This document shows, piece by piece, positions 4,541 through 47,636 of a stretch of 64,000 nt of DNA. Where the stretch lies: contig CM126204.1 in assembly GCA_052327205.1 (NCBI GenBank), forward strand, positions 340,690,001-340,754,000, read 5' to 3'. The notes beneath the pieces are model-generated. The model worked only from the letters and a program-made list of their open reading frames with translations. It was not told the DNA's origin and did no database searches. Source of the DNA: Somniosus microcephalus. Lineage: Eukaryota. The position numbers and the translations under genes were made by a program. Position 1 is the stretch's first letter. Each line of letters opens with the position of its first letter.

Positions 4541-4555
4541 TGTGTGTACTGCTTT

Positions 4556-6661: not shown

Positions 6662-6706
6662 CCCTGTCGAAAGAGGACCGGTTATAACGAGCGCCCCGCG
6701 GCTGCG

Positions 6707-9700: not shown

Positions 9701-9751
9701 CTCGCCCGCCGTCCATCAGCTTCCACTTCAAGGCTACAGAAGTTGATCTGA
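6707..9751 (+). pseudogene. Element B pol (PR, RT, RNase H, IN), frameshifted
   Basis: [41 protein letters not shown] across ORFs 6707-7759, 7756-8670 and 8684-9751. Confidence 0.95.
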
Positions 9752-16041: not shown

Positions 16042-19000
16042 TGTAGTGTCCGCGTATCAATAATACACGGACTGCAGGAGAACAATAATAATAGGTATTT
16101 ACTGAACAGAGGGTAAGCTTAAACTGAAGTACAGAAGCCTGCTATGGCTTTATATACAGGTGTGGTCACTGCTGGTACTGCAGTATAAAATCAGTTCTCT
16201 CATAAAGCACCATACACAACAATTCCTCCCCTTTTAGATAAACAGTACATAACATTCATTTAACAACTAAATAATAACTAATTACAATTACAATTTTCTC
16301 TGTACTATATACATCAACTGAAATAATCATTTATAAGTTCAGTCTTTGAGGAGGCTTCCTGATCCTGACTGGATAGCGCCTTTCTCGAGTATCCTGTTCT
16401 TCCGGCGGAGTCGATTCTGGCTCATTGTCATTGGTTGGTTCGTCAGCTTCCAATACCACTGATTCTGAGGTAGACGCAATCTGTACTTCGGGTTCATTAC
16501 CAGGTGCACATGCTCGTGGTATGGGTTTGACTTGTTCCTGTGACTCTAGAATCTGGTCAGCATGGCGTCTCACGATGCTCTCTCCAACGTCCACTGTGTA
16601 CATTAGTGGTCCCTGCTGTGTGCATATCGTTCCTGGCTGCCATTTTTCTGTTCGGTACTCGCGGGCCAAGACTGGTTGCCCTATCTTGAAGCTCCTGGTT
16701 GGCTTCTCATTGATGTGCTGGAATTGCTTATCCTCAACATCTCGTCTTATGTTTGGTTTGAGCAAATCCAGGCGACATCTTAGCCTTCGGTTGAAGAACA
16801 TTATGGCTGGAGCTTGGTTGGTGACTGCATGTGTCGCATTCCGGTAAGCAAACAAGAAATTATCCACCTTGTGTTGTAGTGGTATGTCGTCGTTATACAT
16901 CGCCTTTATTGCCTTTTTAAAGGTCTGAACAAACCTCTCAGCCAATCCATTTGTGGCTGGATGATATGGGGCAGATGTGTAATGTTTCACCCCATTATTC
17001 CTCAGAAACCTCCGGAAATCCTCGGACACAAACTGTGGTCCATTGTCGGAGCAAATCTGTTCTGGCAAGCCATTCCTGGCAAAGATGGTCCATAGGACTG
17101 CAATAGTTTTCTCCGTGGTGGTGGAGGACATTTTGATGACCTCTGGCCATTTCGAATGGGCATCCACGGCGATTAAGAACATTGAGTCCATAAATGGACC
17201 AGCAAAATCAATGTGTACCCATTGCCATGGAGATGAGAGCCACTCCCATGGGTGTAGTGGGGCCTGTGGTGGAGCATTTTGGACCATCTGGCATCCTGTG
17301 CATCTCTTGGTCATATTCTCGATTTCTTTATCGATTCCCGGCCACCACACAAACGCCCTGGCTAGGCTCTTCATTTTTACCCGTCCCAGATGACCCTCAT
17401 GAAGCTCATTGAGCACTCTATCTCTCAACTTGGGTGGAATTACCACTCGGGATCCACACATCAAGGTCCCCCGGCACACTGACAGCTGTTCTCTCCTTGG
17501 CGAGAATGCTGGCAACAGTGAGTCGCCATGTGCTGGCCATCCCTTCACCGTCAAATCATAGACCCGAGAGAGTGTCGGGTCATTTCGGGTTTCCTTCTCT
17601 ATACTTGAGTTTGTAACAGGTAGACATTCGACTATGGTCGAATGGAATATCTCAGCAGGGTCCACTGCAAGTGCTTCCTCCACCGTAGGCAACGGTAGGC
17701 GCGACAGCCCATCAGCGTTTCCATGCTGTTTCGTACCCTTGTACTCTATGTCGTACTGATGTGCCCCAAGAAAAAGTGACCATCTTTGCAGCCGCTGCGC
17801 CATCATCACCGGAACGCCCTTCTTTGGGTTAAAAATGGAGACCAGAGGTTGATGATCAGTCAGTAGGGTGAATTTCTGCCCGTGCAGATAGTGATTAAAC
17901 TTCTTCACCCCCCACACCAGGCTGAGGGCCTCCCTGTCAATCTGGGCGTAGTTACGCTCGGCTGAGGTTAACAAGCGCGACGCAAAGGCTATTGGCCTCT
18001 CTGAACCGTCAAGGAATTTGTGTGACAGCACCGCTCCAATGCCGTAGGGAGACGCATCACATGCCAACCAAATCGGTAGTGTTGGATTGTAGTGGGCCAA
18101 TACTTCTTTTGAAGTGATTAGGCATTTACATTTCTGAAAGGCACGCTTACACTCATCACTCCATTTCCATGTTACTCCAGTTTGCAGCAGGGCGTTCAGT
18201 GGGTGCAGAATTGCAGATAAATTCAGCAAGAACTTATGGTAGTAGTTCACCAACCTGAGAAACGACCTCAGTTGCGACACATTTTCCGGTGCTGGAGCCT
18301 TGACTACTGCCTCAATCTTGTCTGGGGACTTATGCAGCCCTTCCTCATCAATCATGTGGCCACAATACGAGATTTGTCTCCTGAAGAACTCGCATTGGGG
18401 CGGTTGGCTCGTAGCCCATATTCTTGTAATCTAGTGAGCACCTGCTCCAGGTTGGCAAGGTGTTCACTGTCATTTTCGCCCGTAACCAGGATGTCGTCCA
18501 AATAACACTGGCTCCCCGGGATCCCTTGCAGGACTTGTTCCATCGCCCTCTGCTACCCCGAATACCAGTCGGTTGTACTGGTAACGACCTTTGTGAGTGT
18601 TTATCGTGAGGTATTTCCTAGATGCTTCTATCACTTCCATTTGTAGATACGCTTGGGCCAGATCAATCTTCGTAAAGCGTTTCCCTCCAGATAGTGAGGC
18701 GAAAATATCTTCTATCCGTGGAAGTGGATATTGTACTGTGTGCAGGACTGGGTTCACAGTTACCTTGAAGTCCCCACAGATGTGAACCTTCTTCGGCTCC
18801 CCAGGCATGCTGCTCAATGATTTCTTCATTACAGGAATGGTGGGTGTGGCCCACTTGCTCCAGTCCACCTTGGACAGCACACCTGAACGCTCCAGACTCT
18901 CCAGCTCTGCTTCAAAGGCTGGGCGGATCGCGTACAGTACTGGTCTGGCCTTAAAAATTTTTGGCTTTGCGTTATCTTCGATTTTTATCATTGCCGTTAC

Positions 19001-20991
19001 TCCTTTTAGAGTCCCAAGTCCTTGTTGGAACAGCTCTTTCGCGTCAGTTAGAATTTTTGACAGTCGTCCAGGTGTGACGTCATCATCCTTTTTGTCAGTC
19101 ACAGTTAGCGCCTGAATGGAATGCCGATCCAATTGTATTTTTCGGATCCATTCACGTCCCAATAATGGTGGTCCTCCATCTTGTAGTATATATAGATACA
19201 GTTTCTGTGTTTCCTTGCCGTTGTATTTAACTGGCACCCTTATTTTTCCACTGGGGTAGACTTTTTGCCCCGTGTATGTCTTCAATACAATGGACGTGTC
19301 CTTCAAGGGTATGTGTGAGAATAGCTGCTCATAGTCTCGTCGATTCATGACAGTTAGGGCTGATCCTGTGTCCAATTCCATCTTTACTTGGGATCCTGCT
19401 ATCATGAGGGTGACCCAAATGGTTCAGTGATCCTCCTTTGCGATCACGTTGTATAACTTTAGACAACTTAATCTCCTGCTCCCGGAGTCATTATCACTCT
19501 CCTGATCTTCCGAACTACTGTCATTTTTTTTTACTTTCTTGTACTTTTCCTGAGTAGTTCTTTTAGTGTTGGTTTTCTTTCCCAACCTGCAGACTCTTGC
19601 TATGTGTCCCATTTTCCCACATTGCCTGCATACTTTGTCCTTTAAACCAGCAGCCCTTCTGATCATGGGTTGTTCTGCCACAGCGATAGCACTTTTCTGC
19701 TCCATATGCCATTTCGTTAGCGCTGTATTCTTGTGGTTTCTGTTGTATTTCCACAGCTCCCCGTGCTGCTGCTTCGTAGGATACTGCCACACTGAAAGCC
19801 TGTTCTAGCGTCAGGTCCTTTTCCAAAACTATTCGTTTCTGGGTTCCTTCACTCTGGAGCCCACAGACAAACTTATCCCTTAAGGTGTCTGCCAGTCCTG
19901 CTCCGAACTGGCAGTGCTTCGATAACTTGCGTAGTTCCGTAAGATAGTCAGCATTGCTCTCATCCTTGTGCTGGTTTCTTTTATGGAACTTGAATCTTTC
20001 TGCTATCAGCAGCGGTGTAGGGTTTAGGTGTTCCTGTAAGATATTAACAATCTCTTCAAAACTTTTCTCCATTGGTTTAGCTGGGGTAATTAAATTCCAC
20101 AATAGGCCGTACGTTCTCGCGCCCATCAAATTTAATAATACCGCCACCGCCTTTCCATCGGCCACCTCATTTGCCTTGCAGTACACTTCAATTCTTTCCA
20201 CATACGTGGTCCAGTCTTCTACCTCGTTGTCGAAAGCAGTGATACTGCCAATCTTCGGCATCTTGGGTGGTTTAAAATGGCGCCTCCCGCGCTTTTTCTT
20301 CTTCCCCAATGGATTAAAATGGCGCCTCCCACGCTTTTCCTTCTTCCCCAATGGAATAAAATGGCGCCTCCCCGCTTTTCCTTCTTCCCCTTGCTGCCAC
20401 GCTGCTCCTAGCGTTCTACAGGGTACTGGCGGCGACCCGCGGCTTCGGCGCGTCTCACTTTTCCTTCCCCTCATTTTATTTTCTCTATGCTGCCCGGTTC
20501 TTGAGCACCGACCGCGCCCTGTGCGCTCCACCCTCTCTCTCTCTCTTTTCCTCCCGACGACGCTGCACGGCCCCTTTTGCAGAGCCGCTCGATCGAGCTC
20601 GAGCCCGCCGCAGTCCGGAAGGGTCAGCGCACTACCTGCTACCAGCACGATTTGCTGGAACACCTTGACTGGGGAGCCAAGCCCAGCTCTCCACAGCCTC
20701 CCCTGCAATCCTCCGAACTCCGATAGATCCCTGGGCGGTTGCCCGCGGTCAACGCCCGTTGCTCTGACTTCGACCTCCAAGAAGCTTCTTTTCAGGCGAA
20801 GATCCCCGTGAGGTGATGCAGTACTGCAGGTGAGTTCAAACCTGCTCGTCGCCAGTGTAGTGTCCGCGCATCAATAATACACGGACTGCAGGAGAACAAT
20901 ACAGAAGCCTGCTATGGCTTTATATACAGGTGTGGTCACGGCCGGTACTGCAGTATAAAATCAGTTCTCTCTTAAAGGTACATACACAACA
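16042..20991 (-). mobile_element. Gypsy LTR retrotransposon C (Mag/K02A2.6-like)
   Basis: LTRs 16042-16221 and 20856-20991; TSD TCCCC; PBS TGGCGACGAG (tRNA-Ser GCU-type); PPT aaaaggggaggaat on the minus strand. Confidence 0.95.
16331..20261 (-). pseudogene. Element C gag-pol, frameshifted
   Basis: MPKIGSI gag start, zinc knuckles, LDTGS protease, YLDD, and an RNase H/integrase ORF at 16331-18355 (674 aa). Confidence 0.93.
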
Positions 20992-21485
20992 TCCCCCACT
21001 GCGCGGCCTCCTGCGCAGCCTGCCTCCCCCACTGCGCGGCCTCCTGCGCAGCCTGCCTCCCCCACTGCGCAGCCTCCTGCGCAGCCTGCCTCTCCCACTG
21101 TGCGGCCTGCCTCCCCCACTGCGCGGCCTCCTGCGCAGCCTCCCTCCCCCATTGCGCGGCCTGCCTCCCCCACTGCGCGGCCTCCTGCGCAGCCTCCCTC
21201 CACCACTGCGCGGCCTGCCTCCCCCACTGCGCGGCCTCCTGCGCAGCCTCCTTCCCCCACTGCGCGGCCTCCCTCCCCCACTGCGCGGCCTGCCTCCCCC
21301 ACTGCGTGGCCTCCTGCGTGGCCTGCCTCCCCCACTGCGCGGTCTCCTGCGCGGCCTGCCTCCCCCGCTGCGCGGCCTGCCTCCCCCACTGCGCGGCCTC
21401 CTGTGCGGCCTGCCTCCCCCACCGCGCAGCCTCCTGCATGGCCTGCCTCCCCCGCTGCGCGGCCTGCCTCCCCGACTGCGCGGCT
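20992..21485. repeat. GC-rich minisatellite, right piece (33- and 21-bp units)
   Basis: Same unit as 15879-16041 with interspersed shorter variants. Confidence 0.95.
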
Positions 21486-21593
21486 CATTCCAGTTTTTGC
21501 GCATGTGCGGTGTCTACAATGTAAAAGCCGATGAGCGGCCTGTGCGGGACCTTGCAGATGACTGTGTGGCCGCTCAGCTTGGCAGGAACATTG

Positions 21594-21871: not shown

Positions 21872-24800
21872 TGTAGTGTATGCACTTTGCAGAAGGAACT
21901 ATATTCTGCAGTCCCTGTATACTGCAGTACCAGTAGTGACCACCCCTGTATATAAGCCTGTGTAGTAACTTTTGCATAGTAGTTCCAGTTTGTCTCCACT
22001 CAGTAAAGACCTGTTATAACCAACTCCTGCAGTCCGTGTCTCAATTACACGGGCATAATACTGGCGAAGAGCAGATCCGAACTTACCTACAGTCTGCACC
22101 ACCTCATGGGGATCCATCCCTGAAGCGAAGTTGTCAGAGGTCGAGGCCAGAAGAAAGAAAGAAAAAAAATAAAAAAAAATAAATAAAACAAACAGAAGAA
22201 ACGGGCGTCGACTGTGGGCAACCGCCTCTGATTCATCGGAGTTGAAGATTTGCAGGAGAGACTGTCGAGAGCGGGGCTTGGTTATCCTGTCGATGGTGTT
22301 CCAGTTAATCGGGCTGGTGGCAGGTAGTACACTGATCCTTCCTGGGCTGTGGCGGGCTAGAGCTCGATCGGGTGGCTTTTCAATGGGGCCGAGCAGTGGT
22401 GTCGGGAAGAGGAGAGAGAGGGTGGAGCACACAGGGCGTGGCCGGTGCTACGAAGCCGGGCAGCGTACAGACCCGAGAAGAGGGAGGAAAGTGTCCCGCA
22501 GGGTTGCTCCGACGACGGGGAAATAAAAGAAATTAGAAGCGCAGAAAGCCACGAGGAGCTGCAGTTTGCCACGGGAACCGCAGAGAGTGGCGTTAGCAGC
22601 AGCGCGGGGGGAAGTGCGCGAAGACCATAGGGCGTCGTCATCAAGGCATAATACGCCAGCAACAGCGCTAGCAGCAGCGGGGAAGACGGAAAGCATGGGA
22701 GGCGCCATTTTGTTAAATCGGGGAAGAAGGCAAAGCGCGGGAGGCGCCATCTTAGATTTCCAAGATGCCGAAGACTGGCAATATCACTGCCTTCGATAAT
22801 GCAATAGAAGACTGAGCCACGTATGTGGAAAGAGTCGAAGTATATTGCGAGGCAAACGAAGTAGCCGATGAGAAAAAGGCATCGGTACTACTAAACTTAA
22901 TGGGCGCAAGAACGTACGGCCTATTGCGGAACCTGATTACTCCAGCCAAACCGATGGCGAAGAGTTTTAACGAAATTGTTGATATCCTACAGGAACACCT
23001 AAATCCTACACCGCTGCTGATAGCAGAAAGATTTAAATTCCACAGGAGAAATCAGCATAAAGATGAGAGCAATGCTGATTACCTTACAGAACTACGCAAG
23101 CTATCAAAGCACTGCCAGTTCGGAGCAGGACTGGCAGATACCCTACGGGACAAATTTGTCTGTGGACTCCTGAGTGAAGGAACCCAGAAGAGGTTACTCT
23201 CAGAGAAAGAGCTGACGCTAGATAAGGCTTTCAGCATGGCAGTATCATACGAAGCAGCAGCAAGGGGAGCTGCGGAAATACAGCAAAAGCCACAGGAATA
23301 CGGCACCCACGAAATGACATGGGGATTTGAAAAATGTTATCGCTGCGGCAGAACAACCCATGACCAGAAGGACTGCTGGTCCAAGGACAAAATATGCAGG
23401 CAATGCGGAAAGATGGGACACATTGCACGAGTTTGCAGGTCTGGGAAGAAGACTAACGACAACAAAAAGGCTACGAAGGAACAGTACAGGAAAGTACAAA
23501 AGATGACGGACAGTAGTTCCGAAGGCCAGATGAGTGATAGTGAATCCGGGAACAAGAGACTAAGCTGTCTCAAACTTCACAACGTAATCGCAAAAGAGGA
23601 TCACCGAACCATTTGGGTCACCCTCACGATAGCAGGGTCCCAAGTCAAAATGGAATTGGATACAGGATCAGCCCTGACCGTCATGAATCGACGAGACTAC
23701 GAGCGGCTATTCTCACACATACCCTTGAAAGAGACATCCATTGTCTTGAAGACGTATACGGGGCAAAAAGTATACCCCAGAGGGAAAATAAGGGTGCCTG
23801 TCGAATACAACGGCAAGGAAATACAGAAATTGTATCTGTACATACTACAAGATGGTGGACCACTGTTATTGGGACGTGAATGGATCAGAAAGATAAGTTT
23901 AGACTGGCACTCCATTCAGGCACTGACGGTGGCTGGTAAAAAGGATGACGACGTCACACCTGGACGATTGTCAACATTCTTAGCTAACGCCAAAGAGGTA
24001 TTTCAACAAGAACTGGGAACTCTTAAAGGCGTAACCACCTCGATAAAAATAGAAGAGAATGCAATTCCCAAGTTTTTCAAAGCAAGACCGGTACCATATG
24101 CAATTCGCCCAGCCGTCGAGGCAGAGCTGGAGAATCTGGAGAATGCAGGCATGTTATCTAAGGTAGACTGGAGCGAGTGGGCGACACCCATCGTTCCTGT
24201 CATGAAGAAAACGTTAAACAATAAGTCTGAGGAGCCAAGGAAGGTTCGCATCTGTGGGGACTTCAAGGTGACGGTGAACCCAGTCCTTCACACAGTACAA
24301 TATCCTCTCCCGAGGATAGAAGATATTTTCGCCTCACTATCTGGAGGGAAGCGTTTTACAAAAATTGACCTAGCACAAGCATATTTGCAGATGGAGGTTG
24401 AAGAATCCTCTAGGAAGTATCTCACGATAAACACTCACAAAGGTCTTTACCAGTATAATCGACTGGTATTCGGAGTAGCATCAGCTCCGGCGATATGGCA
24501 AAGAGCGATGGAACAAGTCCTGCAAGGGATTCCGGGGACTCAGTGTTACTTGGACGACATCCTAGTGACAGGTGAAGATGACAGTGAACACCTTGCCAAC
24601 CTAGAGCAGGTGCTCACTAGACTAAGAGAACATGGGCTACGAGCCAATCGCCCCAAGTGCGAGTTTTTTAAGAAACAGATATCGTATTGTGGCCACGTGA
24701 TTGATGAAGAGGGGTTACATAAGTCCCCTGACAAAATTGAAGCGGTAGTTAAGGCTCCAGCGCCTGAAAATGTGTCGCAACTGAGGTCATTCCTCGGATT

Positions 24801-27012
24801 GGTGAATTACTACCATAAGTTTTTGCCGAATTTGTCCACAATTCTGCACCCACTGAATGCCCTACTACAAACTGGAGTAGCATGGAAATGGAGCAATGAA
24901 TGTAAGCGGGCCTTTCAGAAGTGTAAAGACCTAATCACTTCAAGAGAAGTATTGGCTCACTACAACCCAGCACTGCCAATCAGGCTGGCGTGTGATGCGT
25001 CTCCCTCCGGCATTGGAGCGGTACTGTCACATAAATTCCTTGATGGTTCAGAGAGGCCGATAGCTTTTGCGTCACGCTCGTTAACTTCAGCCGAGCGTAA
25101 CTATGCCCAGATTGACAGAGAGGCCCTCAGCCTGGTGTGGGGGGTGAAGAAGTTCAATCACTACCTGCACGGTCAGAAATTTACTCTACTAACTGATCAT
25201 CAACCTCTTGTCTCCATTTTCAACCCTCAGAAGGGCGTCCCGATAATGACAGCAGAACGGCTACAGAGGTGGTCCCTTTTCCTAGGGGCACACCAATATG
25301 ACATCAAGTACAAAGGAACTAAATAGCATGGGAATGCTGATGGATTGTCATGCCTACTGTTGCCGACGGTGGAAGAAGCACCTGCAGTGGATCCAGTGGA
25401 GATATTCCACTCGACCATAGTCGAATGTCTCCCTGTGACGAATGCAAACATAGAAAAGGAAACACGAAATGACCCGACACTCTCCTGGGTCTATGATTTA
25501 ACGGTGAAGGGATGGCCAGCACATGGCGAACCACTGTTGCCAGCATTCTCGCCGAGAAGAGAACAGCTGTCAGTGTGCCGAGGAACCTTGATGTGTGGAT
25601 CCAGAGTAGTAATTCCACCCAAATTGAAGGATAGAGTGCTCAATGAGCTTCATGAGGGTCATCTGGGAGGGGTAAAAATGAAGAACTTAGCCAGAGCGTT
25701 TGTGTGGTGGCCGGGAATCGATAGAGAAATCGAAGAGATGACAAAGAGCTGTACAGGATGCCAGAAGGTCCAAAACGCCCCACCACAAGCCCCTCTACAT
25801 CCATGGGAGTGGCCCTGATCTCCATGGCAAAGGGTACACATTGATTTTGCTGGTCCATTTATGGACTCGATGTTTTTAATTGCGGTGGATGCACATTCAA
25901 AGTGGCCAGTGGTAATAAAAATGTCCTCAACCACTACAGAAAAAACTATCACAGTCTTACGAACCATATTCGCCAGAAATGGGCTGCCTGAACAGATTTG
26001 CTCTGACAATGGACCACAGTTTGTGTCTGAAGAGTTCCGGAGGTTCTTAAAGAACAATGGTGTTAAGCATTACACATCCGCCCCATATTATCCAGCCACC
26101 AATGGATTGGCTGAGAGGTTCGTTCAAACATTCAAGAAGGCTATCAAGGCAATGTGTAATGAAAACATACCCCTACAACACAAGGTGGATAACTTCTTGT
26201 TTGCCTACCGGAATGCGACACATGCGGTTACCAACCAAACTCCAGCCATGATGTTCTTCAATCGAAGACTACGATGCCGCTTGGATTTGGTTAAGCCAAA
26301 CGTCCGAAGAGATGTGGAGAACAGGCAGTTTCAGAATATGAATGAAAGGCCGACCAGGAGTTTTAAGATAGGTCAACCAGTTTTGGCCCGCGACTACCGC
26401 ACAGAGAAATGGCAGCCAGGAACGATCTGTACACGGCAAGGACCTCTAATGTATACCGTGGACGTTGGAGAGAGCATTGTAAGACGCCATGCTGACCAGA
26501 TTCTAGAGTCACTGGAAAACGTCAATTCCACACCACGATCCGATACACCTGGTGATGAAACCAAAGTACCAATTGCATCTACCTCAGAATCGGTGATATT
26601 GGAAGCAGACGAACCAAACAACAACGTTGATCCCGAATCAACTTTGCCAGAAGAACCTGATACCCCAAAGAGGCGTTATCCAGACAGAATCAGGACGCCT
26701 CCTCAAAGACTGAACTTATAATTGCTTAACTTCAGCTAATGTATCTAGCAACTGTAATTGTAAATATGTTATTTAATTATTAATCGAATGTTATGTACTG
26801 TTTAGCTAAAAGGGGAGGAATTGTCGTGTATGTACTTTGCAGAAGGAACTATATTCTGCAGCCCTTGTATTATGCAGTACCAGTAGTGACCACCCCTGTA
26901 TATAAGCCTGTGTAGTAACTTTTGCATAGTAGTTCCAGTTTGTCTCCACTCAGTAAAGACCTGTTATAACCAACTCCTGCAGTCCGTGTCTCAATTACAC
27001 ACGGACATAATA
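21872..27012 (+). mobile_element. Gypsy LTR retrotransposon D (relative of C)
   Basis: LTRs 21872-22060 and 26822-27012; TSD GCTCA; PBS TGGCGAAGAG; PPT aaaaggggaggaat. Confidence 0.95.
22765..26721 (+). pseudogene. Element D single gag-pol ORF with a few premature stops
   Basis: ATG at 22765 (MPKTGNI); 833-aa stretch 22825-25326 covering gag, PR, RT and RH; stops near 22813, 25324 and 25816; integrase to 26721. Confidence 0.95.
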
Positions 27013-27655
27013 GCTCAGTGCAATGCTAAGAGTTTCATTGATTGAGGTATCATCCTTTGAATAATTTATCTGCCTGGTCCCGTGGTTCAGGTGGAAGTTA
27101 AGGATCCTGTGGCATTATCCAAAGAAGATCAGGGAGTTATCTGATGTTCTGGCCAACATTTTCCCCTCAATAAATATTTCCCCAAAACATTGTTGATCTG
27201 TTGCTCATCTCATTACTGTTTGTGAGAGCTTGCTGTGCAGAAATGACTGTCGTACTTGCCTATAGCAATAGTGGCTGCACTTCTAAAAGTAATTCATCGT
27301 ATATGAAGTGCTTTAAGACAGTTGAGATGCTTTTTGTGATTCTTGTAATGATCAATAACATGTCATTCTATAGTGGACACTAGGTGGAGCCGTAGAGCTG
27401 TATATAGCTGTATGTATAAGACTACACCACCCAGCTGTATGATATTAAGACTACATTACCCATGAGGCACTAGGCTACCCACAAGGCAGCAGTCAAGATG
27501 GAAGCCTCCACAGATACAGTACCTCGTCCACATGTGCTCAATAAAAGGTCTAGCAAAAGCTAGCAGTGTTCATAATAAGAATGTCTAGTTATTAATGAAC
27601 ATAACATGGTACCAGGAGTGGGGTGAAGATCTGCTGAAAATTGTGAAAAGCGACT

Positions 27656-27919
27656 GTGTCCTACAAGGGGAAGAAAGGTGGGCAGAACAGAAATGAAAAG
27701 CAATCGGAGGATGACATTTTTAATTGTAAACGCTGTGGTTACAAACACCAGTTAAGACAATGCCCAGCGTTTGGAAAAATGTGCACAAAGTGTAATGGAA
27801 AGAATCACTTTGCCAAACAATGCTTTTCAAAAGTAAAAATGATGAAAGGGCAACGAGTTAATGTGATTGAGGACACTGATTTAAGTGAGACATTTTTTTG
27901 TAGGAATGGTGTCATGTGA
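27656..27919 (+). pseudogene. Element E gag C-terminal remnant (zinc knuckles only)
   Basis: CKRCGYKH..C and CTKCNGKNHFAKQC lie ~100 bp after the PBS; the capsid region is absent. Confidence 0.85.
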
Positions 27920-28865
27920 CGATATCAAAAAAGATACAGAAAATGTGCAGCCCTCAGAAATAGACAATGCTGAACATAAAGTCAATGCAGTAAAAGAGGA
28001 CAAATGGATGATCCCACTGCAGATAAATGGAGCATTAGTTACATTGAAACTGGACACTGGGGCAAAAGCAAACTTAATCAGTATGAGTGACATTAACAAT
28101 ATGAAAGAAAAGCCCAAAATACAGAAAAAGTCAGTACTACTGAAGGACTATAATGGACAGAAAATCGATAGCTTAGGTGTATGCAGGCTCAAAGCGACAG
28201 TCAAAGACAAAGTGCATCATCTCATGTTTTCTGTTGTGGCTGAAAGACTTGATTCGATACTAGGTGACAAAGCTTGTGAAGACTTAGAACTGGTCAAGAG
28301 AGTCTACCGTATAAACTGTGCCATAAGCAGACCAGATGACTCAGGTGATGAAGCAGAGAGCCCATCAAGGATGAAAAGGCCAAAGGGTATCCATGTCTTC
28401 AAAAAGCCTAGTTTCTCCAAGAAGAAAGAAAAAGACTTTAAGGTCAAAGAGAAGCACAAAGAGGAAAAACACAAGGAGAAAAAGTCCAAAGATATAACCG
28501 CAGCAGATGTTGTTAAGCAGTGGAAAGAGAAAAAGAAAAAGAAGAAGCCTGCACCAGAGCAGGAAGCAGTTCCGGTGGATACTCCTTCTTCCCTCAGGCC
28601 AATCTTTGGTGTTCCATTAGCCGAGGCTGCTGAGAGGACTATGCTGTATGATGGGATCCAGCCGCCAGCAGTTTTTCGAGAGTGCATTGACTACATTGAG
28701 AGTTATGGCATGAAGAGTGATGGAAACACTGAAACCCTCTCCAAGCAAAGATCGCAAGGAGACCTCGATCTATACAAGAGCAGATTGATGACAATGCCGC
28801 AACTGCATCTTATCATTCACCGCCAGAACAATCTCATGAAGACACATCAGACTTACCCGTGTTGA
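27906..28865 (+). CDS. Chimeric ORF: retrotransposon aspartic protease fused in frame to a RALBP1 fragment (expression unknown)
   Basis: ATG at 27906 (GGAATGG), LDTGAKAN protease, then SGDEAESPSRMKR...YGMK with no intervening stop. Confidence 0.7.
   Translation: MVSCDDIKKDTENVQPSEIDNAEHKVNAVKEDKWMIPLQINGALVTLKLDTGAKANLISMSDINNMKEKPKIQKKSVLLKDYNGQKIDSLGVCRLKATVKDKVHHLMFSVVAERLDSILGDKACEDLELVKRVYRINCAISRPDDSGDEAESPSRMKRPKGIHVFKKPSFSKKKEKDFKVKEKHKEEKHKEKKSKDITAADVVKQWKEKKKKKKPAPEQEAVPVDTPSSLRPIFGVPLAEAAERTMLYDGIQPPAVFRECIDYIESYGMKSDGNTETLSKQRSQGDLDLYKSRLMTMPQLHLIIHRQNNLMKTHQTYPC
28341..28720 (+). pseudogene. RALBP1: Captured RALBP1 (RLIP76) coding fragment: Lys-rich region and start of the RhoGAP domain
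   Basis: SGDEAESPSRMKRPKGIHVFKKPSFSKKKEKDFK...TAADVVKQWKEKKKKKKP...RPIFGVPLAEAAERTMLYDGI..PAVFRECIDYIESYGMK matches vertebrate RALBP1 as I recall it. Confidence 0.92.
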
Positions 28866-29984
28866 GAAGATCCACACGTGAAGTAAAAGAGCCTGATGGA
28901 CTTATTCTTTGAGTACAATGTAAAGCTTTGAAAATGTGTTGACTGTTTTGAAAATGTTTATGTTTATAGAGCACTAACAAAAGTGTTACTGATATTATCT
29001 TTATTGTTTTCTTGAAAGTTGATTGATATTGATTTTGTTAAACCTCAAAGAAAGGGGGATGTAACGATCAATAACATGTCATTCTATAGTGGACACTAGG
29101 TGGAGCCGTAGAGCTGTATATAGCTGTATGTATAAGACTACACCACCCAGCTGTATGATATTAAGACTACATTACCCATGAGGCACTAGGCTACCCACAA
29201 GGCAGCAGTCAAGATGGAAGCCTCCACAGATTCAGTACCTAGTCCACATGTGCTCAATAAAAGGTCTAGCAAAAGCTAGCAATGTTCATAATATGAATGT
29301 CTAGTTATTAATGAACATAACAATTCTTTGTTATCTAAATGTATAAAAGTTTTAGGGGGCTGTTTTCCCCGCTGTAGCGCCTGCTTAGCCGCCTTTAGCG
29401 CAAGATGTCACCTTGGTAAAGGAATTTAAGCGTGTGCTAGGAACAGCCGCACCGAGGATGATTAAGCCTCTGATTACCAATTAAATTGGCTCCCAACACT
29501 CATTAAAGAGTCTGTACGCCTCATTTTGCTGGCTGGCAATGCAATTAACGGCCTCTCCTAACAGCGATCAGCTGAACTGGAGTAAAGAAGTCGTTGGTGA
29601 GGATTGCGAGCACTACTTAAAGCCACGCTCAGCTTTCACTGTTCACTTGCTGATTGGGATCGGCTGACTACACTGCGTTTGAAGAGGACTTTTGATACAC
29701 GTTGGGAGACTTTCTGGGACACTTTGTCAAGACTTCAACATTCTATCAACATTTATTCTGGAGACTCTCTGAGGACTTCACTGAAAGAGAGTGAGTGCTG
29801 TGCTACTGTACCTTTATTGGAGTCAGCAGGAGAAAGGGAGTGGTTGGTCATGGGGATCTTGCTAGGGGTCCCCCTTGGTCTGGAGGAGGCGATGAGGCCA
29901 GGCAGCTGGAGGAGAAAGGGGGGAAGAGGGACAGGAGGGCGCCAGATCATAGAATCATAGAAATTTATGGCACAGAAGGAGGTC

Positions 29985-37982: not shown

Positions 37983-38415
37983 ATAGAAACATAGAAACAT
38001 AGAAGATAGGAGCAGGAGTAGGCCATTTGGCCCCTCGAGCCTGCTCCGCCATTCAATGAGATCATGGCTGATCATCCAAACTCAGTACCCTGTCCCTGCC
38101 TTCTCCCTATATCCCTTGATCCCTTTAGCCTTAAGAAATATATCTAACTCCTTCTTGAATATATTTAATGAATTAGCCTCAACTGCCTTCTGTGGTAGAA
38201 AATTCCACAGGTTCACCACTCTCTGGGTGAAGAAATTCCTCATCTCTGTCCTAAATGGCTTACCCCTTATCCTTAGACTGTGACCCCTGGTTCTGGATTT
38301 CCCCGCCATTGGGAACATCCTTCCTGCATCTAGTCTGTCTAGTCCTGTTATAATTTTATAAGTTTCAATGAGATCCCCTCTCATTCTTCTAAACTCCAGT
38401 GAATATGAGCCCAAT
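37983..38415 (-). mobile_element. 5'-truncated CR1 3' end
   Basis: catagaaa tail repeats and the CR1 ORF2 C-terminus. Confidence 0.92.
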
Positions 38416-39289
38416 GATATACTGGGGAGATTCTTGTATGGCCTGGTGGGGGTGGAGCCACCACCCACGCCACACAATGCAATTAAAACAGGAGAGGGGG
38501 AGATGGGTGCAAATAAAAAGATGCCTTACATGAGCACTTAGTGGGACCCAATGATACATCAGTGGCAGTAACTGGGCATGCTAGCCGGCCAAAGAGTGGA
38601 GGTGGTCCCCACCTGGTAGTCCAGGCTGAGATTGTGGTCTGGATCCTTGATATAAAAAAATGAATTGCCATTCCCCTTGCAAGTAGTGTTCTATAGTAAA
38701 AGGCTGGTGGGTATGGGCAGGTATGGATGGTTGGAGAAGGATTATGCGAGGCCATGGAAGGCACTGAAGATGAAAAGAAGGGTCTTGAAGTCGATTCACC
38801 GATACCCAGGGAATCGATAGAACCATGCAAGGTTGGAGAAAGAAAGACTTGCGCTTCTTTAGTGATGGAGAGAATATAGGACATGGATTGTTCAATAAAC
38901 TGGAATTTGTGGAGGGCAGAAGGCTGGTGAGGAGAACATTGGAGAGGTCAAGTCTCGAGCTGATGGAGGCTTGGTTAATGTTACAGCTGTGGGAGAAGCT
39001 GGGTTGCAGTTGGATTGTGTTTCAGAGGTGGGAAGAAGCAGTCTTAGAACGGACCAGAGATAGGGTCTCACAGGACACTGAGGTTGCACATCACCTAATT
39101 TAGCCTAAAAGGGTACATAGTAAGTCTGTTGGAGTTGATGCTAGGGGCACTCAGTGCGAACTGAAAGGATGGCTTCAGTATGAAAAGAGAAGAGGGAGAG
39201 GTGACCTGATAGATTCCTTAAAATTATGAAGGGGTTTGATGGGGCAGGCGTAGTTCTATGTAGTTTTGCCAATGCTGAGCTGTAGCTGT

Positions 39290-40716
39290 AACCCTGCTTT
39301 TTAAGAAAGGAGGGAGAGAGAAAACAGGGTACTACAGAGCTGTTAGCCTCACATCAGTAATTGGGAAAATGCTGGAATCTATTATAAAGGATGCAATAAC
39401 TGGGCACTTAGAAACTAATAGCAAGATTGGGCAGAGTCAACATGGATTTATGAAAGGGAAAATCATGTTTGACAAACCTATTGGAGTTCTTTGAGGATGT
39501 AACTAGTGGAGTAGACAAAGGGGAACCAGTAGATGTGGTGTATCTGGATTTTCAGAAGGCCTTTGATAGGTCCCACACAAGAGGTTGGTGAACAAAATTA
39601 GGGCACAAAGAATTGGGGGTAATATACTAGCATGGATTGAGAATTGGTTAACGGACAGAAAACAAAGAGTAGGGATAAACGGGTCTTTTTCAGGATGGCA
39701 GGCTGTGACTAGTGGGGTACCACAAGGATCAGTGCTTGGGCCCCAGCTATTCACAATCTATATCAATAATTTGGATGAGGGGACTAAATGTAACATTTCC
39801 AAATTTGCTGATTACACAAAGCTAGGTGGCAGTGTCAGTTGCGAAGAGGATGTGAAGAGGCTTCAAGGGGATCTCGACAGGCTCAGTGAGTGGGCGAGAA
39901 CATGGCAGATGGAATATAATGTGGATAAATGTGAAGTTATCCACTTTGGTAGTAAAAACAGAGAGGCAGCGTATTTCCTAAATGGTGAAAGATTGGGGAA
40001 TGCAGATGCTCAAAGGGACCTGGGTGTCCTTGTACATGAGTCACTGAAAGTGAATGTGCAGGTGCAGCAAGCAAATGGTATGCTGGCCTTCATTACAAGA
40101 GGATTTGAATACAGGAGTAAAGAAGTCTTACTCCAATTATATAGGGCCTTGGTGAGACTACACCTGGAGTACTATGTACAATTTTGGTCTCCTTACCTAA
40201 GGAAGGATATACTTGCCATAGAGGGAGCACAACGAAGGTTCACAAGATTGATTCCTGGGATGGCGGGACTTTCGTATGAGAAGAGATTGAGTAAATTAGG
40301 CCTGTATTCTCTTGAATTCAGAAGAATGAGAGGGGATCTCATTGAAGCATACAAAATTATTACAGGGCTTGATAGGGTGGATGCTGGGAGAATGTTTCCT
40401 TGGCTGGGGAATCTAGAACCAGGGGCCACAGCCTCAGGGTAAAGGGTAGGCCATTCAGGACTGAGATGAGAAGAACTTTCTTCACCACAGCAGGTGGTGA
40501 ATCTTTGGAATTCTCTATCCCAGAGGGCTGTGGAGGCTCAGTCATTGGGTATATTCAAAACAGAAGTCGATAGATTTCTGACTAGTAAGGGCATCAAGGG
40601 ATATGGCGATAGGGCCGGTGAATGGAGTTGAGGCAGAAGATCAGCCATGACCATATTGAATGGCGGAGCAGGCTCGAAGGGCCGAATGGCCTACTCCTGC
40701 TCCTATTTCTTATGTT
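39290..40716 (+). mobile_element. 5'-truncated CR1 LINE (RT to 3' UTR), frameshifted
   Basis: [10 protein letters not shown] and KFADY motifs; 3' UTR ending ttcttatgt. Confidence 0.92.
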
Positions 40717-41045
40717 AACAGGTCATCCAGGACTCAATGGTGGACAAGAAAGTATTGCAGCGGCTTTGGAATCCATAGTAGATATGGAGTTGGGTGTCAT
40801 CAGCATACATGTAGAAGGTGACTCTGTGCTTGCATATGATGCCACTGGGTGTTACATGTAGATGACGGAAAGGTGGAACTGAGTCCAGGGTAATGGTGCA
40901 GGCATGAGAGGGTGCAGGCATGAGAGGTTGAGCTATTAGAGGAGATGAGGGACTATTTTGCAACGGGTATGGAGAGAGGCGGGGGAGGAAAATGGTGCGG
41001 TCAGCAGTGTCAAAGATGGCCGAGAGGATGAGGAAGGCAGGAGAA
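40717..41045 (-). mobile_element. Old L2-like LINE RT fragment
   Basis: LSAIFDTADRTI and MYADDTQLH motifs. Confidence 0.7.
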
Positions 41046-41994
41046 TTTTGCATGAAAATTTTGTTTGAAATTATATGAATGAAAGAATTTTTCCTGAAAT
41101 TATTTCTCCCATATTTCCCTCTCCCTTAGCCAAAAATATTCAAAACACATTTAATAAAAAATACCTTTCTGAAAAAGTACAAAGCGTTGGGATATTTTGG
41201 AACTGTTTGATTTTTAAAAAATGGCCTGATGGTGACAGTAGAACTTTAGGATACAGAAAAAAAACCAATGTTTTGTTGGTGCTGGGTTGTGATTTGTGAA
41301 TTATGCTTGTGCTGTAGCTTCCTTGTAAATACACTGTTACTTGGCGACACTACTGGATACAATCAAAATCAACAACCCCTCCCACCCCCTCCTGCCTGTG
41401 GTTACTGACGATAAGTGTATGGATTCCATTAATATGCAAGCTGAGATGAACTACCAGTGTGCAGGTCAGTGATTGGACCGGTTACCTATGGTTGAATACA
41501 ATGCTACCCAGGATAGCTTTCCATTAAACCATTGGGGAGCCCATAAAAATTAATTATAATTTTGTTCATGGAAACTAATATTTCTAAAGCCAATCATAAC
41601 AAATAAACAGATTACAAATTGAAACAGGCACATGACCAAACGTTTAAATGGTCAATGCATAAACGGTTTGGTCCCAAAAATCAACTGGGGTTCGATTCTT
41701 CTCCTACTGGAATCCGGCAGGAGACTGGTGGATGCCAGGGGAAAACGGCAGGGACCTGGCTGCATGGAGTCTCCAAAGTTCCTGGAATTTTCCAGCCTGC
41801 CATGTAAAGGTTGAAACCTTCACCTGCCCCGTACAAGGCAAGTGTTGTCAAGGGTGGAGCCAGGCGTTGGGACTTGCTACAGTGGGAATTTCTGAATCCT
41901 GGCTCATGCAGGACCCCGAGTAGGTATGGAGGGTGGTAAGTTGAGGCGTATCAGCCATCATAGGGGCGGCAGTTGACCCCAGTGGAATGGGATC

Positions 41995-42222
41995 TGACAT
42001 AATAAAACTCACTACACACTTGGTTTGAGCATAAAGCAAGGCTTTAATCAACTTATTTCAGAACATGGAGGTCTAGTTGTATTTCACTAGCTCCTTGTCC
42101 TTACAAAATGTCCCTGGTAAGCTGGGGCCAACGCCCGAGTATTTATACTCCTTGGACAGCGCCACCAGCTGTCCGTCCAGTGTTATTTCATAGGTAGTTT
42201 CTCGATGATGAGATTTATGACA
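41995..42222 (-). mobile_element. Solo LTR (family S), copy 2
   Basis: TG..CA, TSD GGATC. Confidence 0.88.
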
Positions 42223-42879
42223 GGATCGGTGGGGGATTTCCTGGGCAACCAACCCTCAATGGTGGGCAGGCGCTGGATTTTCTAACGGCACAGGGCAGGT
42301 CGGCACCAGAGAGGTACATGCAGTGCTGCTTGCGCCTACTGACCACGTACAAATTAGGTGCCTTTCAACTGGCCTCGCAAATACCAGCAGGGTGAGTGCT
42401 GGAGGGCACTGATGGGTATGATCCCAGCATAATTGCCAGGGTCACGTTTCCTGGATTTCTTACATGAGAGAAAAAGCATACAGTGGTCTTCATATTGATA
42501 GGGTTACGGCAACTATTCTCCAACTAACCTTTTAGAGGAGGTCATATTTTGCACAATTGTGCATGTTTGTACCGTAGCTTAACATGCTTCAGGGGCAGGG
42601 TGGGCACAGGCTGCTGCAGTAACAAATGACACCAGACCTAAAGCATTGGATCTCTCATGGGCATGGAAAGTAGCCTCGCCGTTCACTTTTCTTCCAGTCT
42701 TCCACCATGGTTAGAAACTGCCACGGGAGCTCGGCGAAATATGGCGTAAAGTGCAAAAAGCCCCACAAAATAATCTGTGACAATATTTACAATTCATTTC
42801 AACAGAAAGAAAAGTTAGCAGTTTCTATTACCAGTGTGAAATCCTCTCCACCAGATTTTCCATTCTGCGCTCTGTCTAG

Positions 42880-43560
42880 ACGATGCTTGAAGACGAAAAT
42901 TTACCCATCACCCTCTCCATCTACTCATTGAGGCTGAACCAGACTGTGCTGCCTGACCTTGAGATGAGCTTCAAAGCCCTTATCCTATTAATCACCAAGA
43001 TCACCGATTTCCACCTAGACAACATTGCCCACCACTACCTCAATCCCTCCACTGCTAAAACTCTAATCCATGCTTTTATTATCACTAGACTCGATTATTC
43101 CACTGCCCTCCATTCTGATCTCACAACCCCCCAATCTCCATAAACTCCAACCTGCCCAAAATGTAGCTGCACTAAGTACTGCTTGCACCTTACCCCTATT
43201 CTCACTGACCTACACTGGTTCCCTGCCCCCACTGTATTAAATTTAAGCTCCTCATCTTCAAATCACCACATGGCCTTGTCCTACCTTATATAATCTCCTC
43301 CAGCCTTCAATCCTTTGATTCTGGTCCTTTGTGCGTTTCCCCTCCCTTCCTGCTGCCATTGGTGGCAGTGTCTCCACTCTCTATAACTTCCTCCCTAAAA
43401 CCCCTTTTCTTTTTGAACTTCTCTATCCTCCTTTAAAAGTCTTCTCAAAACTAATCTTTTTGACCAGACTGCTCCTAATCTCTCCCTCCATGGCTATTTA
43501 TATTGGCGTAGTGCCTTGGGATGTACATTTTATATTAAGGTTGCTATATTAACACAAGTT
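42880..43560 (+). mobile_element. Old L2-like LINE 3' fragment
   Basis: AKTLIHAFIITRLDYS and LHW-type motifs; ends in a gctatattaacacaagttgtt tail. Confidence 0.7.
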
Positions 43561-44554
43561 GTTACACAGAATGAGGTTAATAGTTCTAAAACCTCATTGG
43601 TTTCTCAATCTTCATAAATCCTCTACTGAAGGCACTTGCTCCTTGTTTGGAGGGCAATTCTATAATTACTAGTTGCTCTCCACCGCCCTGCTCAAGTAAT
43701 CATTATTCATTCGTGAACTCCAGTGCAATCAGTTAATTCAGCACAGATAACAGAGAGAACCAGCAACCTGCTTGATCCGTATTGTTTAGCTACTCACTGC
43801 CTAAACCCATTAATCTACCTGGGGAATCATGCACCCATTCTTGATTGTACTCTATGGGACTGACCAGCACCGAGTCAAATGAAACATCCCTCCAATCAGC
43901 AAAGCTGCTTATTCATAATGGCGTTAACATTGCTGACTTATTATTATGCGCCCAATCAAATCTCTCCTGTGGTGTTAAATTAAAGTTACAGTCGCACCTC
44001 CTTTTGTGCAGACACAGTTGGTAATTGCCATTTTATTCATCTGGGTCACATTGGGGTGATGAAGATGGGGCAAATTTATTCTTTAGCAATTGGCTAGGAA
44101 ATTCTTTGAAGCTCTCGCTTTGATTGCATTTAAATTTAATATAGTTTTGGGAGGCAAGGGAAAAGGAAGCAACTAGCTAGTCATTAAGGAGGTGGGAGCA
44201 GCTGTTGGCATGTCAGGCAATTTTCTCGGCGTTTCCATGGTGATTATTTACACGGGCCGCAGTGGCTGTGGGTTCAGAGTTCTAGGTATTGTGAATTCAA
44301 GCTGTGAACCATTTAAAATAGAAAGCAAACACTTTTTGTTTCAAGCACTTCACATCTTTGATGCAGAGTATTAAAATAGCATTTCATTAAATCATATCAA
44401 AAGGTTTCCATGTGAATCTTCCCAATTTTTTATGTGAATCATCCCTTCTGAATTGTACTTTTGAAGCATGGCTGATGAGGAATATAAAATCCTACGTTAT
44501 TACCAATGTAATCTTGTGAAGAATATATTCTGTGGAAAAACAATGCAAACAGGG

Positions 44555-44950
44555 TACAGTAGCACAGTGATTATGTTGCTGGACTAGGCATCCAGAGCCT
44601 GGACTAATGATCCAGAGACATGAGTTCAAATCCCACCACGGGTTTAAAGTCAGTTAATTGAATAAATCTGGAATAAAAAGCTAGTATCAATAATGGTAAC
44701 CATGAAACTACCGTATTATCATAAAAACCCATCTGGTTCACTAATGTCCTTTAGGGAAGGCAATCTACTGTCCTTACCCAGTCTGGCCTATATGTGACTC
44801 CAGACCCAGAGCAATGTGGTTGACTCTTAACTGCCCTCTGAAATGGCCCAGCAAGCCACTCAGTTCTATAAGGTGGCTCACCACCACCTTAGGTAATAAA
44901 TGCTGGCATTGCCAGCGACGTCCACATCCCGTGAATAAGTTTCTAAAAAA
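44555..44950 (+). mobile_element. tRNA-derived SINE with LINE-like tail
   Basis: A-box-like tagcacagtg, B box gagttcaaatccc, 3' end aataaatgctggcattgccagcgacgtccacatcc. Confidence 0.75.
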
Positions 44951-45352
44951 AAGGAATACTTGGTCAGTATTTGTAGATCCTATCAGATCAGATATACATG
45001 ATGTCGTGCCATGGGCATATAATAAAAAAGTTAATAACTAATTTACTCTGCATAAGTAAGATTGCCAGGATTCTTCTTTATTAGTTGAACACGAATAACT
45101 AGTCTTTGAAATACGTAGAATAATAGGGTAGAAATTAGTACTGAAGACATTATCCCACGAGCGATTAACAATTTCTCAGCCTACTATCTGAACAAAGGCA
45201 TTACCACATTAGAATGAACAGGTTAACAGCTCTGTTAGAATAGCGGAGAGTGAAATTTAATACAGGTAATTAGCAGTAATAATGTCTACACTTCTGTCCT
45301 CTTGAATCTTACCAGCTTACTGATCTTCACTGTGCTATGCATTGGGCTGTTT

Positions 45353-47636
45353 GGCCTTGAAATTTGGCTCATTTGTGCCTGCTGTTGGCACCTCTGGGGG
45401 CGCAAAGGGCTTATCACTTCAGGGCGGGGGGGAGGTGAAAAAAGCACCTCCCGAGAAATTTGGTGGGGCGTTGCTGAGGCGCGACCTGATATCGCCACGC
45501 CCACGCCGGTAGCGCCCCAAGCCACTGCACTGCTGGTGATTATGTCATCGCCATGCGGCGCAACCCCTTACTGCCATGCGGCAGAAATTCGGCCGCGCCC
45601 TGCGAGGCTGCCGTGTGCGATGTCAGTGCCAGCCTCACGGGTTGCGAACCGGGCCGACCTCTGCTCGTGGGGCGGTAGTTAAAGGGGAGGTGTGGCCACG
45701 TACCATGCCGCCATTTTCTTTTTTTGGCCGACCTCCAGGCCGGCCCGCCATGGTGTGCCGTGGCGTGGTCTTGGCCACCATCGCGCAGCCCGCCCAGCAC
45801 GCGTCTCAGTGCCGGGCTGTGGCTGCAGCACCACGCCACCCTGGTGACCTAGTGTGGGCCATCTGAGGCCCTGCAGAGTGCGCAGCGGCCCCTCCCCTTT
45901 AACTGAAGCGGAGGGGCATTGAAACGTGGCAGCGATCTGCGGAGCCTCCGTCGAGCACTGCTGTTCATAGAAACATAGAAACATAGAAGATAGGAGCAGG
46001 AGTAGGCCATTCGGCTCCTCGAGCCTGCTCCGCCATGCAATGAGATCATGGCTGATCATCCAAATTCAGTACCCTGTCCCTGCCTTCTCTCCATATCCCT
46101 TGATCACTTTAGCCTTAAGAAATATATCTAACTCCTTCTTGAATATATTTAATGAATTGGCCTCTACGGCCTTCTGTGGTAGAGAATTCCACAGGTTCAC
46201 CACTCTCTGGGTGAAGAAATTCCTCCTCATCTCTGTCCTAAATGGCTTGCCCCTTATCCTTAGACTGTGACCCCTGGTTCTGGACTCCCCGACCATCGGG
46301 AACAACCTTCCTGCATCTAGTCTGTCTAGTCCTGTTAGAATTTTATAAGTTTCAATGAGATCCCCTCTCATTCTTCTAAACTCCAGCGAGTACAAGCCCA
46401 ATCGATCCAATCTCTCCTCATACGTCATTCCTGCCATCCCAGGTATCAGCCTGGTGAATCTTCGCTGAACTCCTTCCATGGCAAGAACATCCTTCCTCAG
46501 ATAAGGCGACCAAAACTGCGCACAATACTCAAGATGTGGTCTCACCAAGGCCCTGTACAACTGCAGCAAGACATCCTTGTTCCTGTACTCAAACCCTCTC
46601 GCTACGAAGGCCAACATACCATTTGCCTTCTTAACTGCCTGGTGCACCTGCATGCTTACCTTCAGCGATTGGTGCACAAGGACACCCAGGTCTCCTTGCA
46701 CTTCCCCTTCTCCCAATCTATTGCCATTCAGATAATAATCTGCCTTCCTGTTTTTGACACCAAAGTGGATAACCTCGCATTTATCCACGTTATATTGCAT
46801 CTGCTATGCTTCTGCCCAATCACTCAACCTGTCCAAATCATACTGGAGTTTCTCAGCATCCTCCTCACAGCACACACGCCCACCCAGCTTTGTGTCATCT
46901 GCAAACTTGGAGATATTACACCTAGTTCCCTCGTCTAGATCATTAATATATATTGTGAATAGCTGGGGTCCAAGGACCGATCCCTGCGGTACCCCACTAG
47001 TCACTGCCTGCCACTCGGAAAAAGACCCATTTATTCCAACTCTTTGCTTTCTGTCTGCCAACCAGTTCTCTATCCAAGTCAATACCTTGCCCCCAATCCC
47101 ATGTGCCTTAACTTTACACGCTAATCTCTTATGCGGGACCTTATTGAATGCCTTTTGAAAGTCCAAATACACCACATCCACTGGTTCTCCCTTATCTATT
47201 TTACAGTTACATCCTCAAAAAATTCCAGTAGATTAGTCAAGCACGATTTAGCCTTTGTAAATCCATGTTGACTTTGTCTGATCCGGTCACTGTTTTCCAA
47301 GTGCTCTGCTATTACATCTTTTATAATGGACTCTAGCATTTTCCCCACTACTGATGTCAGGCTTACCGGTCTGTAATTCCCCATTTTCTCTCTACCACCT
47401 TTTTTGAATAGTGGGGTAACATTAGCTACCCTGCAATCCATGGGTACTGTTCGCGCCTGACATTGGCTCAGTTACCGCCCCAGCAGGAAGTGGAGCTCCC
47501 AACATTGCGCTCCACTTCCTGTGCGGGACGGTAAGCTGAATTTAGCGGCCGGGGCGGTACTTCTGTGCTGGGTGCTAAATGTCCCGCCTTAACCCGGTTA
47601 CTGCCCCCAAATGGGGTGAAACCGAATTTCGCGCCC
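45353..47636. mobile_element. GC-rich Harbinger-type MITE split by a CR1
   Basis: Ends ggccttgaaatttgg / ccgaatttcgcgccc; TTT on both flanks. Confidence 0.7.
45966..47452 (-). mobile_element. 5'-truncated CR1 LINE
   Basis: RT ORFs 47196-47441, 46804-47181 and 46066-46800; tail at 45966; ctgttc on both sides. Confidence 0.93.

Follow-up and report, generated by a model that had tools for sequence, protein, structure and literature searches.

A Ty3/gypsy-type retrotransposon family of Somniosus microcephalus in which two pieces of RALBP1 stand in place of the reverse transcriptase-integrase core

Oncogene-transducing defective retroviruses carry host coding sequence that is fused in frame to gag and replaces pol, and they depend on a helper. 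For LTR retrotransposons of animals, Tan et al. 2016 described LTR-mediated retrocopies, which arise by template switching with microsimilarity (PMC5131818). In portions of that paper, host mRNA replaces part of an internal ORF through more than two switches while both LTRs are kept, and microsimilarity at the joins, sense transcription, frequent in-frame fusion, and further retroposition are reported. The same portions describe Bs1 of maize, whose chimeric ORF joins an LTR element to host exons, only part of them in frame, and whose copies all have the same switch points. The TR-GAG elements of plants are shorter than 4 kb, are ordered as LTR-PBS-one ORF-PPT-LTR, lack reverse transcriptase (RT), RNaseH, and integrase, are expressed, and reach up to approximately 1,000 copies (PMC4350172, in part). 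The element reported here resembles the last three systems in these features, copy number aside, with an mRNA origin and sense transcription being probable.

The window, i.e., the whole stretch of DNA that was analysed, comprises 64,000 nucleotides of Somniosus microcephalus (contig CM126204.1, positions 340,690,001 to 340,754,000). A first-pass annotation made from the sequence alone had drawn attention to an ORF in which a complete aspartic protease is in frame with a Lys-rich segment of RALBP1. The coordinates, the length (319 aa and TGA at 27906-28865), and the Kozak-type context of the ATG, which has G at -3 and +4, were all borne out. The protease matched PF13975 over ORF residues 37-120 (E 5.5e-6; 27.3 bits, just missing the cut-off of 28.2), and the RALBP1 segment was confirmed by alignment. 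The ORF is housed in a Ty3/gypsy LTR element of 1,979 bp (27344-29322), of which the RT-RNaseH-integrase core is swapped for two RALBP1 pieces (Table 1). The host sequence occupies part of the internal ORF between the two LTRs, and neither a poly(A) tail nor a LINE-type duplication is present around it, which agrees with the definition of an LTR-mediated retrocopy.

Table 1 Features of the RALBP1-carrying element in the window.
Feature	Position	Strand	Description or basis
5' target-site duplication ATTCT	27339..27343	+	same five bases at 29323-29327
5' LTR, 263 bp, TG...CA	27344..27606	+	5 differences vs 3' LTR
Primer-binding site, complementary to tRNA-Leu(TAA) 3' end	27607..27623	+	match to tRNA-Leu genes of same genome
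Site of missing gag, ~586 nt incl. start codon	27654..27655	+	loose read ends and pol-bearing relatives
Gag remnant, two zinc knuckles	27725..27823	+	frame differs from ORF in window copy
T run of 7, frameshift site of window copy	27893..27899	+	private lesion or assembly slip
319-codon ORF	27906..28865	+	gag-protease linker, protease, RALBP1 piece, 46-residue tail
Retropepsin-type aspartic protease	28011..28265	+	LDTGA at 28050-28064
RALBP1 piece 1, in frame	28340..28723	+	most of second coding exon, residues ~91-229; 128 aa, 26 Lys
Family-vs-parent sites	28369, 28550, 28586, 28656, 28703		five fixed differences
RALBP1 piece 2, out of frame	28717..28771	+	end of last coding exon through first base of stop codon; 54/55 identical
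Integrase C-terminal tail and 3' untranslated region of parent retrotransposon	28770..29046	+	pol-bearing relatives
Polypurine tract	29047..29059	+	
3' LTR	29060..29322	+	
3' target-site duplication ATTCT	29323..29327	+	

The primer tRNA pattern gave 136 matches in the genome, and the loci examined were tRNA-Leu in four of four cases. Most of the 100 primer-tRNA matches listed lie in a dense tRNA-Leu(TAA) array with tRNA-Ser neighbours at approximately 0.72-1.92 Mb of contig C4. The full 17-nt match was present in only 2 of 89 scorable copies, 75 of which carry either of two shorter-matching forms. Reverse transcription can copy the primer tRNA into the primer site, and the window site was probably rewritten in this way.

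The ATG at 27906 is an internal Met of the gag-protease linker and no new start. It had been proposed that one extra T is all that separates the gag knuckles from the ORF frame. The T run and the difference in frame are indeed present, but the window copy has also lost approximately 586 nt of gag, from the start codon onwards. The run length was found in 0 of 86 scorable family copies, and a gag as short as that of the window copy in 0 of 89.

The first RALBP1 piece derives from G000:C7:32331455-32331042 (minus strand) and matches this exon of the same genome at 376 of 384 aligned bases; it is 30 nt shorter than the parent, within the KEEKH repeats. Against the 655-aa mammalian RALBP1, the identity was 72% over 140 columns (residues 91-229). 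A search for the Ral-binding family gave a single match in the genome, the parent RALBP1 on contig C7; the parent coding exons found are open, and its closest named relatives among the matches listed are from cartilaginous fishes. According to portions of a paper on RALBP1/RLIP76, residues ~91-229 cover the basic region, which is disordered, and the first part of the RhoGAP domain, and the arginine finger is Arg232 (PMC8124665). The captured piece is likewise disordered and ends three codons short of the finger; any product would therefore lack the finger and keep the basic region, as had been anticipated. By the same source, the missing parts are residues 1-90, the coiled coil, the Ral-binding domain, and approximately 80% of the GAP domain, with Arg232 and Lys268 among the residues lost. 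The earlier term "GAP-dead" is right as to the finger but is an understatement, since only about 38 of the 177 RhoGAP-domain residues (192-368) are left, with nothing to compete for Rac/Cdc42. No match to PF00620 (RhoGAP) was obtained in the ORF at E 0.1.

The homology had been said to end at YGMK(SDG). This holds for the in-frame part, in which the D of SDG is a substitution of the window copy found in 0 of 97 sampled copies, but 55 further bases match the last coding exon (G000:C7:32292546-32292492) in another frame. The parent in the same genome continues as SEGIYRVSG, i.e., the continuation given earlier (CEGIYRVSG) was correct except for its first residue. The two pieces overlap by a 7-nt microhomology, a word that is found in both exons. 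Because piece 2 is out of frame and stops at the first base of the parent stop codon, the ORF continues for 46 foreign residues, read in a frame that neither RALBP1 nor integrase uses. Each piece lies within one exon, and their join is internal to exons, with no exon-exon junction spanned; the 38.5 kb that separate them in the RALBP1 gene would suggest an mRNA template. Another copy of the fused element, at G000:C7:32361072-32357715, has the same orientation as RALBP1 itself and lies 24 kb upstream of its first coding exon; it is interrupted by a LINE-like piece of approximately 745 bp. At one copy per 2.3 Mb, the chance of a copy within the 150 kb fetched is approximately 6%. This copy carries the derived joins and hence is not an obvious source.

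In the 20 pol-bearing relatives that were examined, 17 of which extend to the 3' join, the alignment with the element breaks off at 28347 and resumes at 28770; the intervening segment of approximately 2,520 nt comprises RT, RNaseH, and integrase. The donor has the features of Ty3/gypsy elements: the domain order (protease-RT-RNaseH-integrase by Pfam in one pol-bearing relative), a CCHC gag, a tRNA primer site, a polypurine tract, a 5-bp duplication, and no env, the last judged only by the short gap from the integrase tail to the LTR. The homology is CTC (3 exact), a 1-nt gap, and then GGTG (4) at the 5' join, GTGAAGG (7 exact) at the middle join, and CT (2 exact) at the 3' join. Microhomology is present at each of the three joins, a pattern known from LTR-mediated retroposition, and is short at the outer two. 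The gypsy element next door (21872-27000) was considered as a helper and rejected, for it gave no BLASTN match. Longer precursors of the family were also sought; a pattern extending into GIYRVSG matched the parent and 8 loci of an unrelated family.

Other repeats surround the element. The neighbour at 21872-27000 (+) has 179-bp LTRs and an open stretch of 836 codons; it is related to a gypsy element at 16324-20870 (-), the two being 83-89% alike and facing apart, with a GC-rich 21/33-bp tandem repeat (approximately 20957-21571) between them. Two adjoining LTR elements of other gypsy-type families, with broken pol frames, occupy 1052-5603 and 5604-10181, many LINE RT fragments lie in 38000-55000, and a tandem array with a 76-bp period lies at 60934-61841. 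The unrelated family comprises loci L068-L075 on contigs C3, C5, C7, C8, C10, and C35 (approximately 600-2300 of each locus). Between its long direct repeats, it contains spliced RALBP1 (the first, second, and sometimes third coding exon) including the arginine finger, followed by pieces of other host mRNAs that differ by copy, namely PGK and VWA (L075), CCCAP (L073), and LDL-receptor A (L070) by Pfam, and stretches that we take to be Tudor-, DCN1-, and PRPF6-like. This family, with at least 8 loci, looks like a serial gene-collecting element.

Pattern counts in the genome, which allowed up to 2 mismatches and were 0 for the controls, were 2,841 for the protease-RALBP1 junction, 6,561 for the RT start, and 9,346 for the protease end. 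Fused and RT-start counts together set against the protease-end total indicate that the two forms account for the family, and the fused form is about 30% of a family of approximately 9,000 copies. Chance does not account for the junction matches, which numbered 2,841 against 0 for the reversed control. We analysed 100 of these copies, taken not at random but as the first 100 on contig C1 that match the junction exactly. The middle join was present in 97 and the 3' join in 96 of the 100, and none continued into the GIYR/GAP domain. Five differences from the parent were fixed (in 96-100 of 97-100 copies), which together with the shared joins indicates one capture, and secondary retroposition with common switch points is evident. 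The target duplication was an exact 5 bp in 55 of 65 scorable copies and had one mismatch in 6. Some copies have, however, multiplied by segmental duplication and not by transposition (clusters on C3 and C39), as indicated by the common 3' flanks of two groups (L004, L005, L010, L013, and L020; L017, L018, L021-L025, L027, and L028).

The median divergence between paired LTRs was 1.65% for fused copies (84 of 100 copies, one pair being identical) and 2.1% for pol-bearing copies (12 of 20). This similarity indicates, with no rate applied, that both forms spread over the same period. A tree of the gag-protease region was built from 113 rows (94 fused, 19 pol-bearing) after 7 gap-rich ones had been excluded; on it, the label changed 7 times, as compared with 1 expected without recombination and 17.8 in shuffles (minimum 13). 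Diversity was 4.1% in gag, 3.1% in protease, and 1.9% in the RALBP1 piece. Such mixing of the forms and the higher gag-protease diversity would be expected if fused and pol-bearing elements share particles and recombine. Under a second organism label, DNA contigs formed a deep pile on the RALBP1 piece at roughly 1/4-1/3 of the protease depth, which, although depth is not copy number, fits an expansion common to two close species. The contigs of run X1 (organism A), which show presence and not absence, contained the parent's last exon only.

Selection was measured by comparing the amino-acid-to-silent ratio of variants in at least 3 copies with that of private variants. The ratio was 0.52 for gag (95% interval 0.34-0.80, p 0.004), 0.27 for protease (interval 0.12-0.60, p 0.002), and 0.96 for the ORF tail. 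For the RALBP1 piece it was 0.81 (95% interval 0.31-2.08, p 0.62), a weak test with 23 variants, and 1.20 for variants in at least 2 copies. Purifying selection therefore acts on Gag and protease and is not detectable on the RALBP1 piece, for which moderate constraint would also be compatible with these values. Two-thirds of the frequent gag/protease variants also occur in pol-bearing copies, so that part of the gag-protease signal is imported; for variants absent from the 20 pol-bearing copies, the signal was weaker (37:19 vs 428:113, p 0.04). Private changes look neutral in every region in both the 60-copy and the 100-copy analyses.

A single Gag-protease-RALBP1-tail frame is intact in 14 of 100 copies, compared with approximately 20 expected from a rough count of independent decay, and the other 86 are broken. 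Purifying selection after insertion, as required of a functional retrogene, was not seen in these 100 of 2,841 copies, in view of the neutral private changes and the lack of an excess of intact frames. Shared indels were in frame in 4 of 5 cases and private ones in 6 of 17 (p 0.14). A first count had given p 0.047, and this excess was rejected because three interrupted copies had given rise to 8 of the 25 private events as artefacts; a 1-nt insertion common to a four-copy clade, apparently before the gag start as placed by eye, was also excluded. A stop or frameshift in the RALBP1 piece never exceeds 4 of approximately 97 copies. A lineage without 26 codons of the basic stretch occurs at 25 dispersed places on 16 contigs.

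Two raw RNA runs, X23 and X24 (24% and 31% read), gave 4,400 and 8,875 reads on 27300-29059 with 30 of 30 bins covered; they were chosen by species label and may not be of the same species as the genome. The family is transcribed. In X23, one strand of the RALBP1 piece was covered at a depth of 114-314 and the opposite strand at 4-31, a bias that would fit sense transcription if the common protocol was used; X24 showed less strand bias with reads on both strands. At the 5' join, 46 X23 reads leave for RT, at a depth of approximately 330, and parent-type loose ends were absent among those listed at either RALBP1 join; judged from these ends, much of the X23 RNA probably comes from fused copies. 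Transcription of the window copy itself, one of the checks that had been proposed, was not seen: its allele at 28721 was present in 0 of 191 and 0 of 154 reads, and that at 28663 in 0 of 148 and 1 of 148, although the RNA animals may lack the insertion. No fused protein was found among public proteins, in which the best coverage was 55% among 82 near-length matches and 45% among the best 120 of 332 longer ones; repeats are seldom annotated there, which makes this negative weak. Gypsy polyproteins are processed by their protease, and if an open copy is translated, cleavage would probably take place close to the end of the protease itself and release the basic fragment within the particle. As judged from its sequence, such a fragment could not act as a GAP-dead competitor, as four-fifths of the GAP domain are gone, but it would keep the polybasic residues 154-171 and the R-Ras site (PMC8124665, in part).

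Taken together, these findings are probably best explained by a helper-dependent non-autonomous element that carries the RALBP1 piece as a passenger and of which the window copy is a dead member. In a single event within a Ty3/gypsy particle, RT would have left the element RNA within the integrase tail and switched to the end of a co-packaged RALBP1 mRNA, would have skipped approximately 400 codons through the 7-nt microhomology then or soon after, and would have rejoined the element RNA at the protease end. Approximately 2.5 kb of RT-RNaseH-integrase would thereby have been replaced by approximately 450 nt of host sequence. With the LTRs, primer site, polypurine tract, Gag, and protease kept, the fused RNA could be transcribed and packaged with that of pol-bearing relatives, whose enzymes would copy it in trans; recombination with these relatives and growth to approximately 30% would have followed. 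A point counter to this explanation is that no other large derivatives at the protease-end junction were seen in the genome pattern counts; hence shortness alone has produced no rivals here.

A broader proposal, that the gypsy element uses the RALBP1 basic segment or its open frame for a packaging or RNA-stability edge, hence makes up approximately 30% of 9,000 copies, and through its RNA feeds back on host RALBP1, appears rather unlikely to us. Its first half can be taken separately. Gag-protease-RALBP1 from open copies might enter particles, where the Lys-rich part would help to bind RNA, to contact membranes, or in transport; alternatively, the RNA might be stabilised by a frame that stays open to near the 3' LTR. 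The in-frame join, the growth of one capture to 30% of the family, the mostly in-frame shared indels, and the rarity of stops and frameshifts in the piece would all fit such a benefit, as would family RNA that crosses the piece with strong strand bias in X23. The piece also contains the polybasic 154-171, two predicted binding segments, and the R-Ras site of RALBP1 (PMC8124665, in part). However, amino-acid changes are not depleted among its shared variants, the lineage with the 26-codon deletion has transposed, the repeats favour in-frame slippage regardless, and one join in three would be in frame by chance. We consider a benefit to the element unlikely.

The second half, action on host RALBP1, seems very unlikely. 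Family RNA that is approximately 98% like the RALBP1 mRNA would feed small RNAs that lower RALBP1, or basic fragments would compete for its N-terminal partners (AP2 mu2, ARNO, epsin, and R-Ras). The high identity to the parent, the both-strand reads in X24, and the X23 joins, which are without parent-type ends among those listed and suggest more family RNA than parent mRNA, are in keeping with this. Nevertheless, the piece lacks the first 90 residues, which contain the ARNO site (Ser29/Ser30) and the segment with the strongest binding prediction, and the parent exons are intact in frame. Last, that the window copy is a new host gene translated from ATG 27906 is extremely improbable: although the frame is open with a good start context, and 41 of 100 copies are likewise open from the protease start through the tail, 12 ATGs lie upstream behind the LTR AATAAA, with three open short frames overrunning 27906, both of the copy's own changes in the RALBP1 piece alter residues, its alleles are nearly absent from the RNA, and the LTR difference of 5/263 is an ordinary age at which such openness is common. 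Neutrality and broken copies had been aptly named in advance as the evidence that would count against a neogene, and both were found. The window copy is one broken member of a retrotransposon family and not a lone neogene; as a single decayed insertion, it most likely has no protein product.

Compared with oncogene-transducing retroviruses, the probable helper-dependent passenger-carrying element is a Ty3/gypsy element without env, amplified in the germ line, and with no sign of selection on its host piece. Our literature search, outside the scope of which lay most subscription journals, repeat libraries, and preprint supplements, returned no paper on a RALBP1-carrying family. Portions of the main text of a 244-genome retrocopy preprint (2026) do not name RALBP1 and link the abundance of retrocopies in vertebrates to non-LTR elements. 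In cartilaginous fishes, LTR and not LINE machinery may have multiplied some of the genes that have many retrocopies. In genomes of this kind, a single selfish family can underlie the number of RALBP1 reads, the number of retrocopies, and "gene duplications".

The TR-GAG elements are defined as without protease and without host sequence, whereas the RALBP1 element has a protease, host exons, and a vertebrate host (PMC4350172, in part); it works like TR-GAG yet fails the TR-GAG definition, owing to its protease. Bs1 has 1-5 copies and three parental genes, whereas the RALBP1 element has one parental gene, two pieces, and thousands of copies (PMC5131818, in part). In contrast to the LTR-mediated retrocopies in portions of that paper, the RALBP1 element has 2,841 junction matches, constitutes 30% of its donor family, shows ongoing recombination, and has Gag and protease under selection; the main-text portions contain no comparable copy number. 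The mechanism is already known, and the scale is unusual. A single LTR-mediated capture can reach thousands of copies in a vertebrate, far above the 1-5 of Bs1, and the family provides a dated population for asking whether captured host sequence aids a retroelement or merely rides with it.
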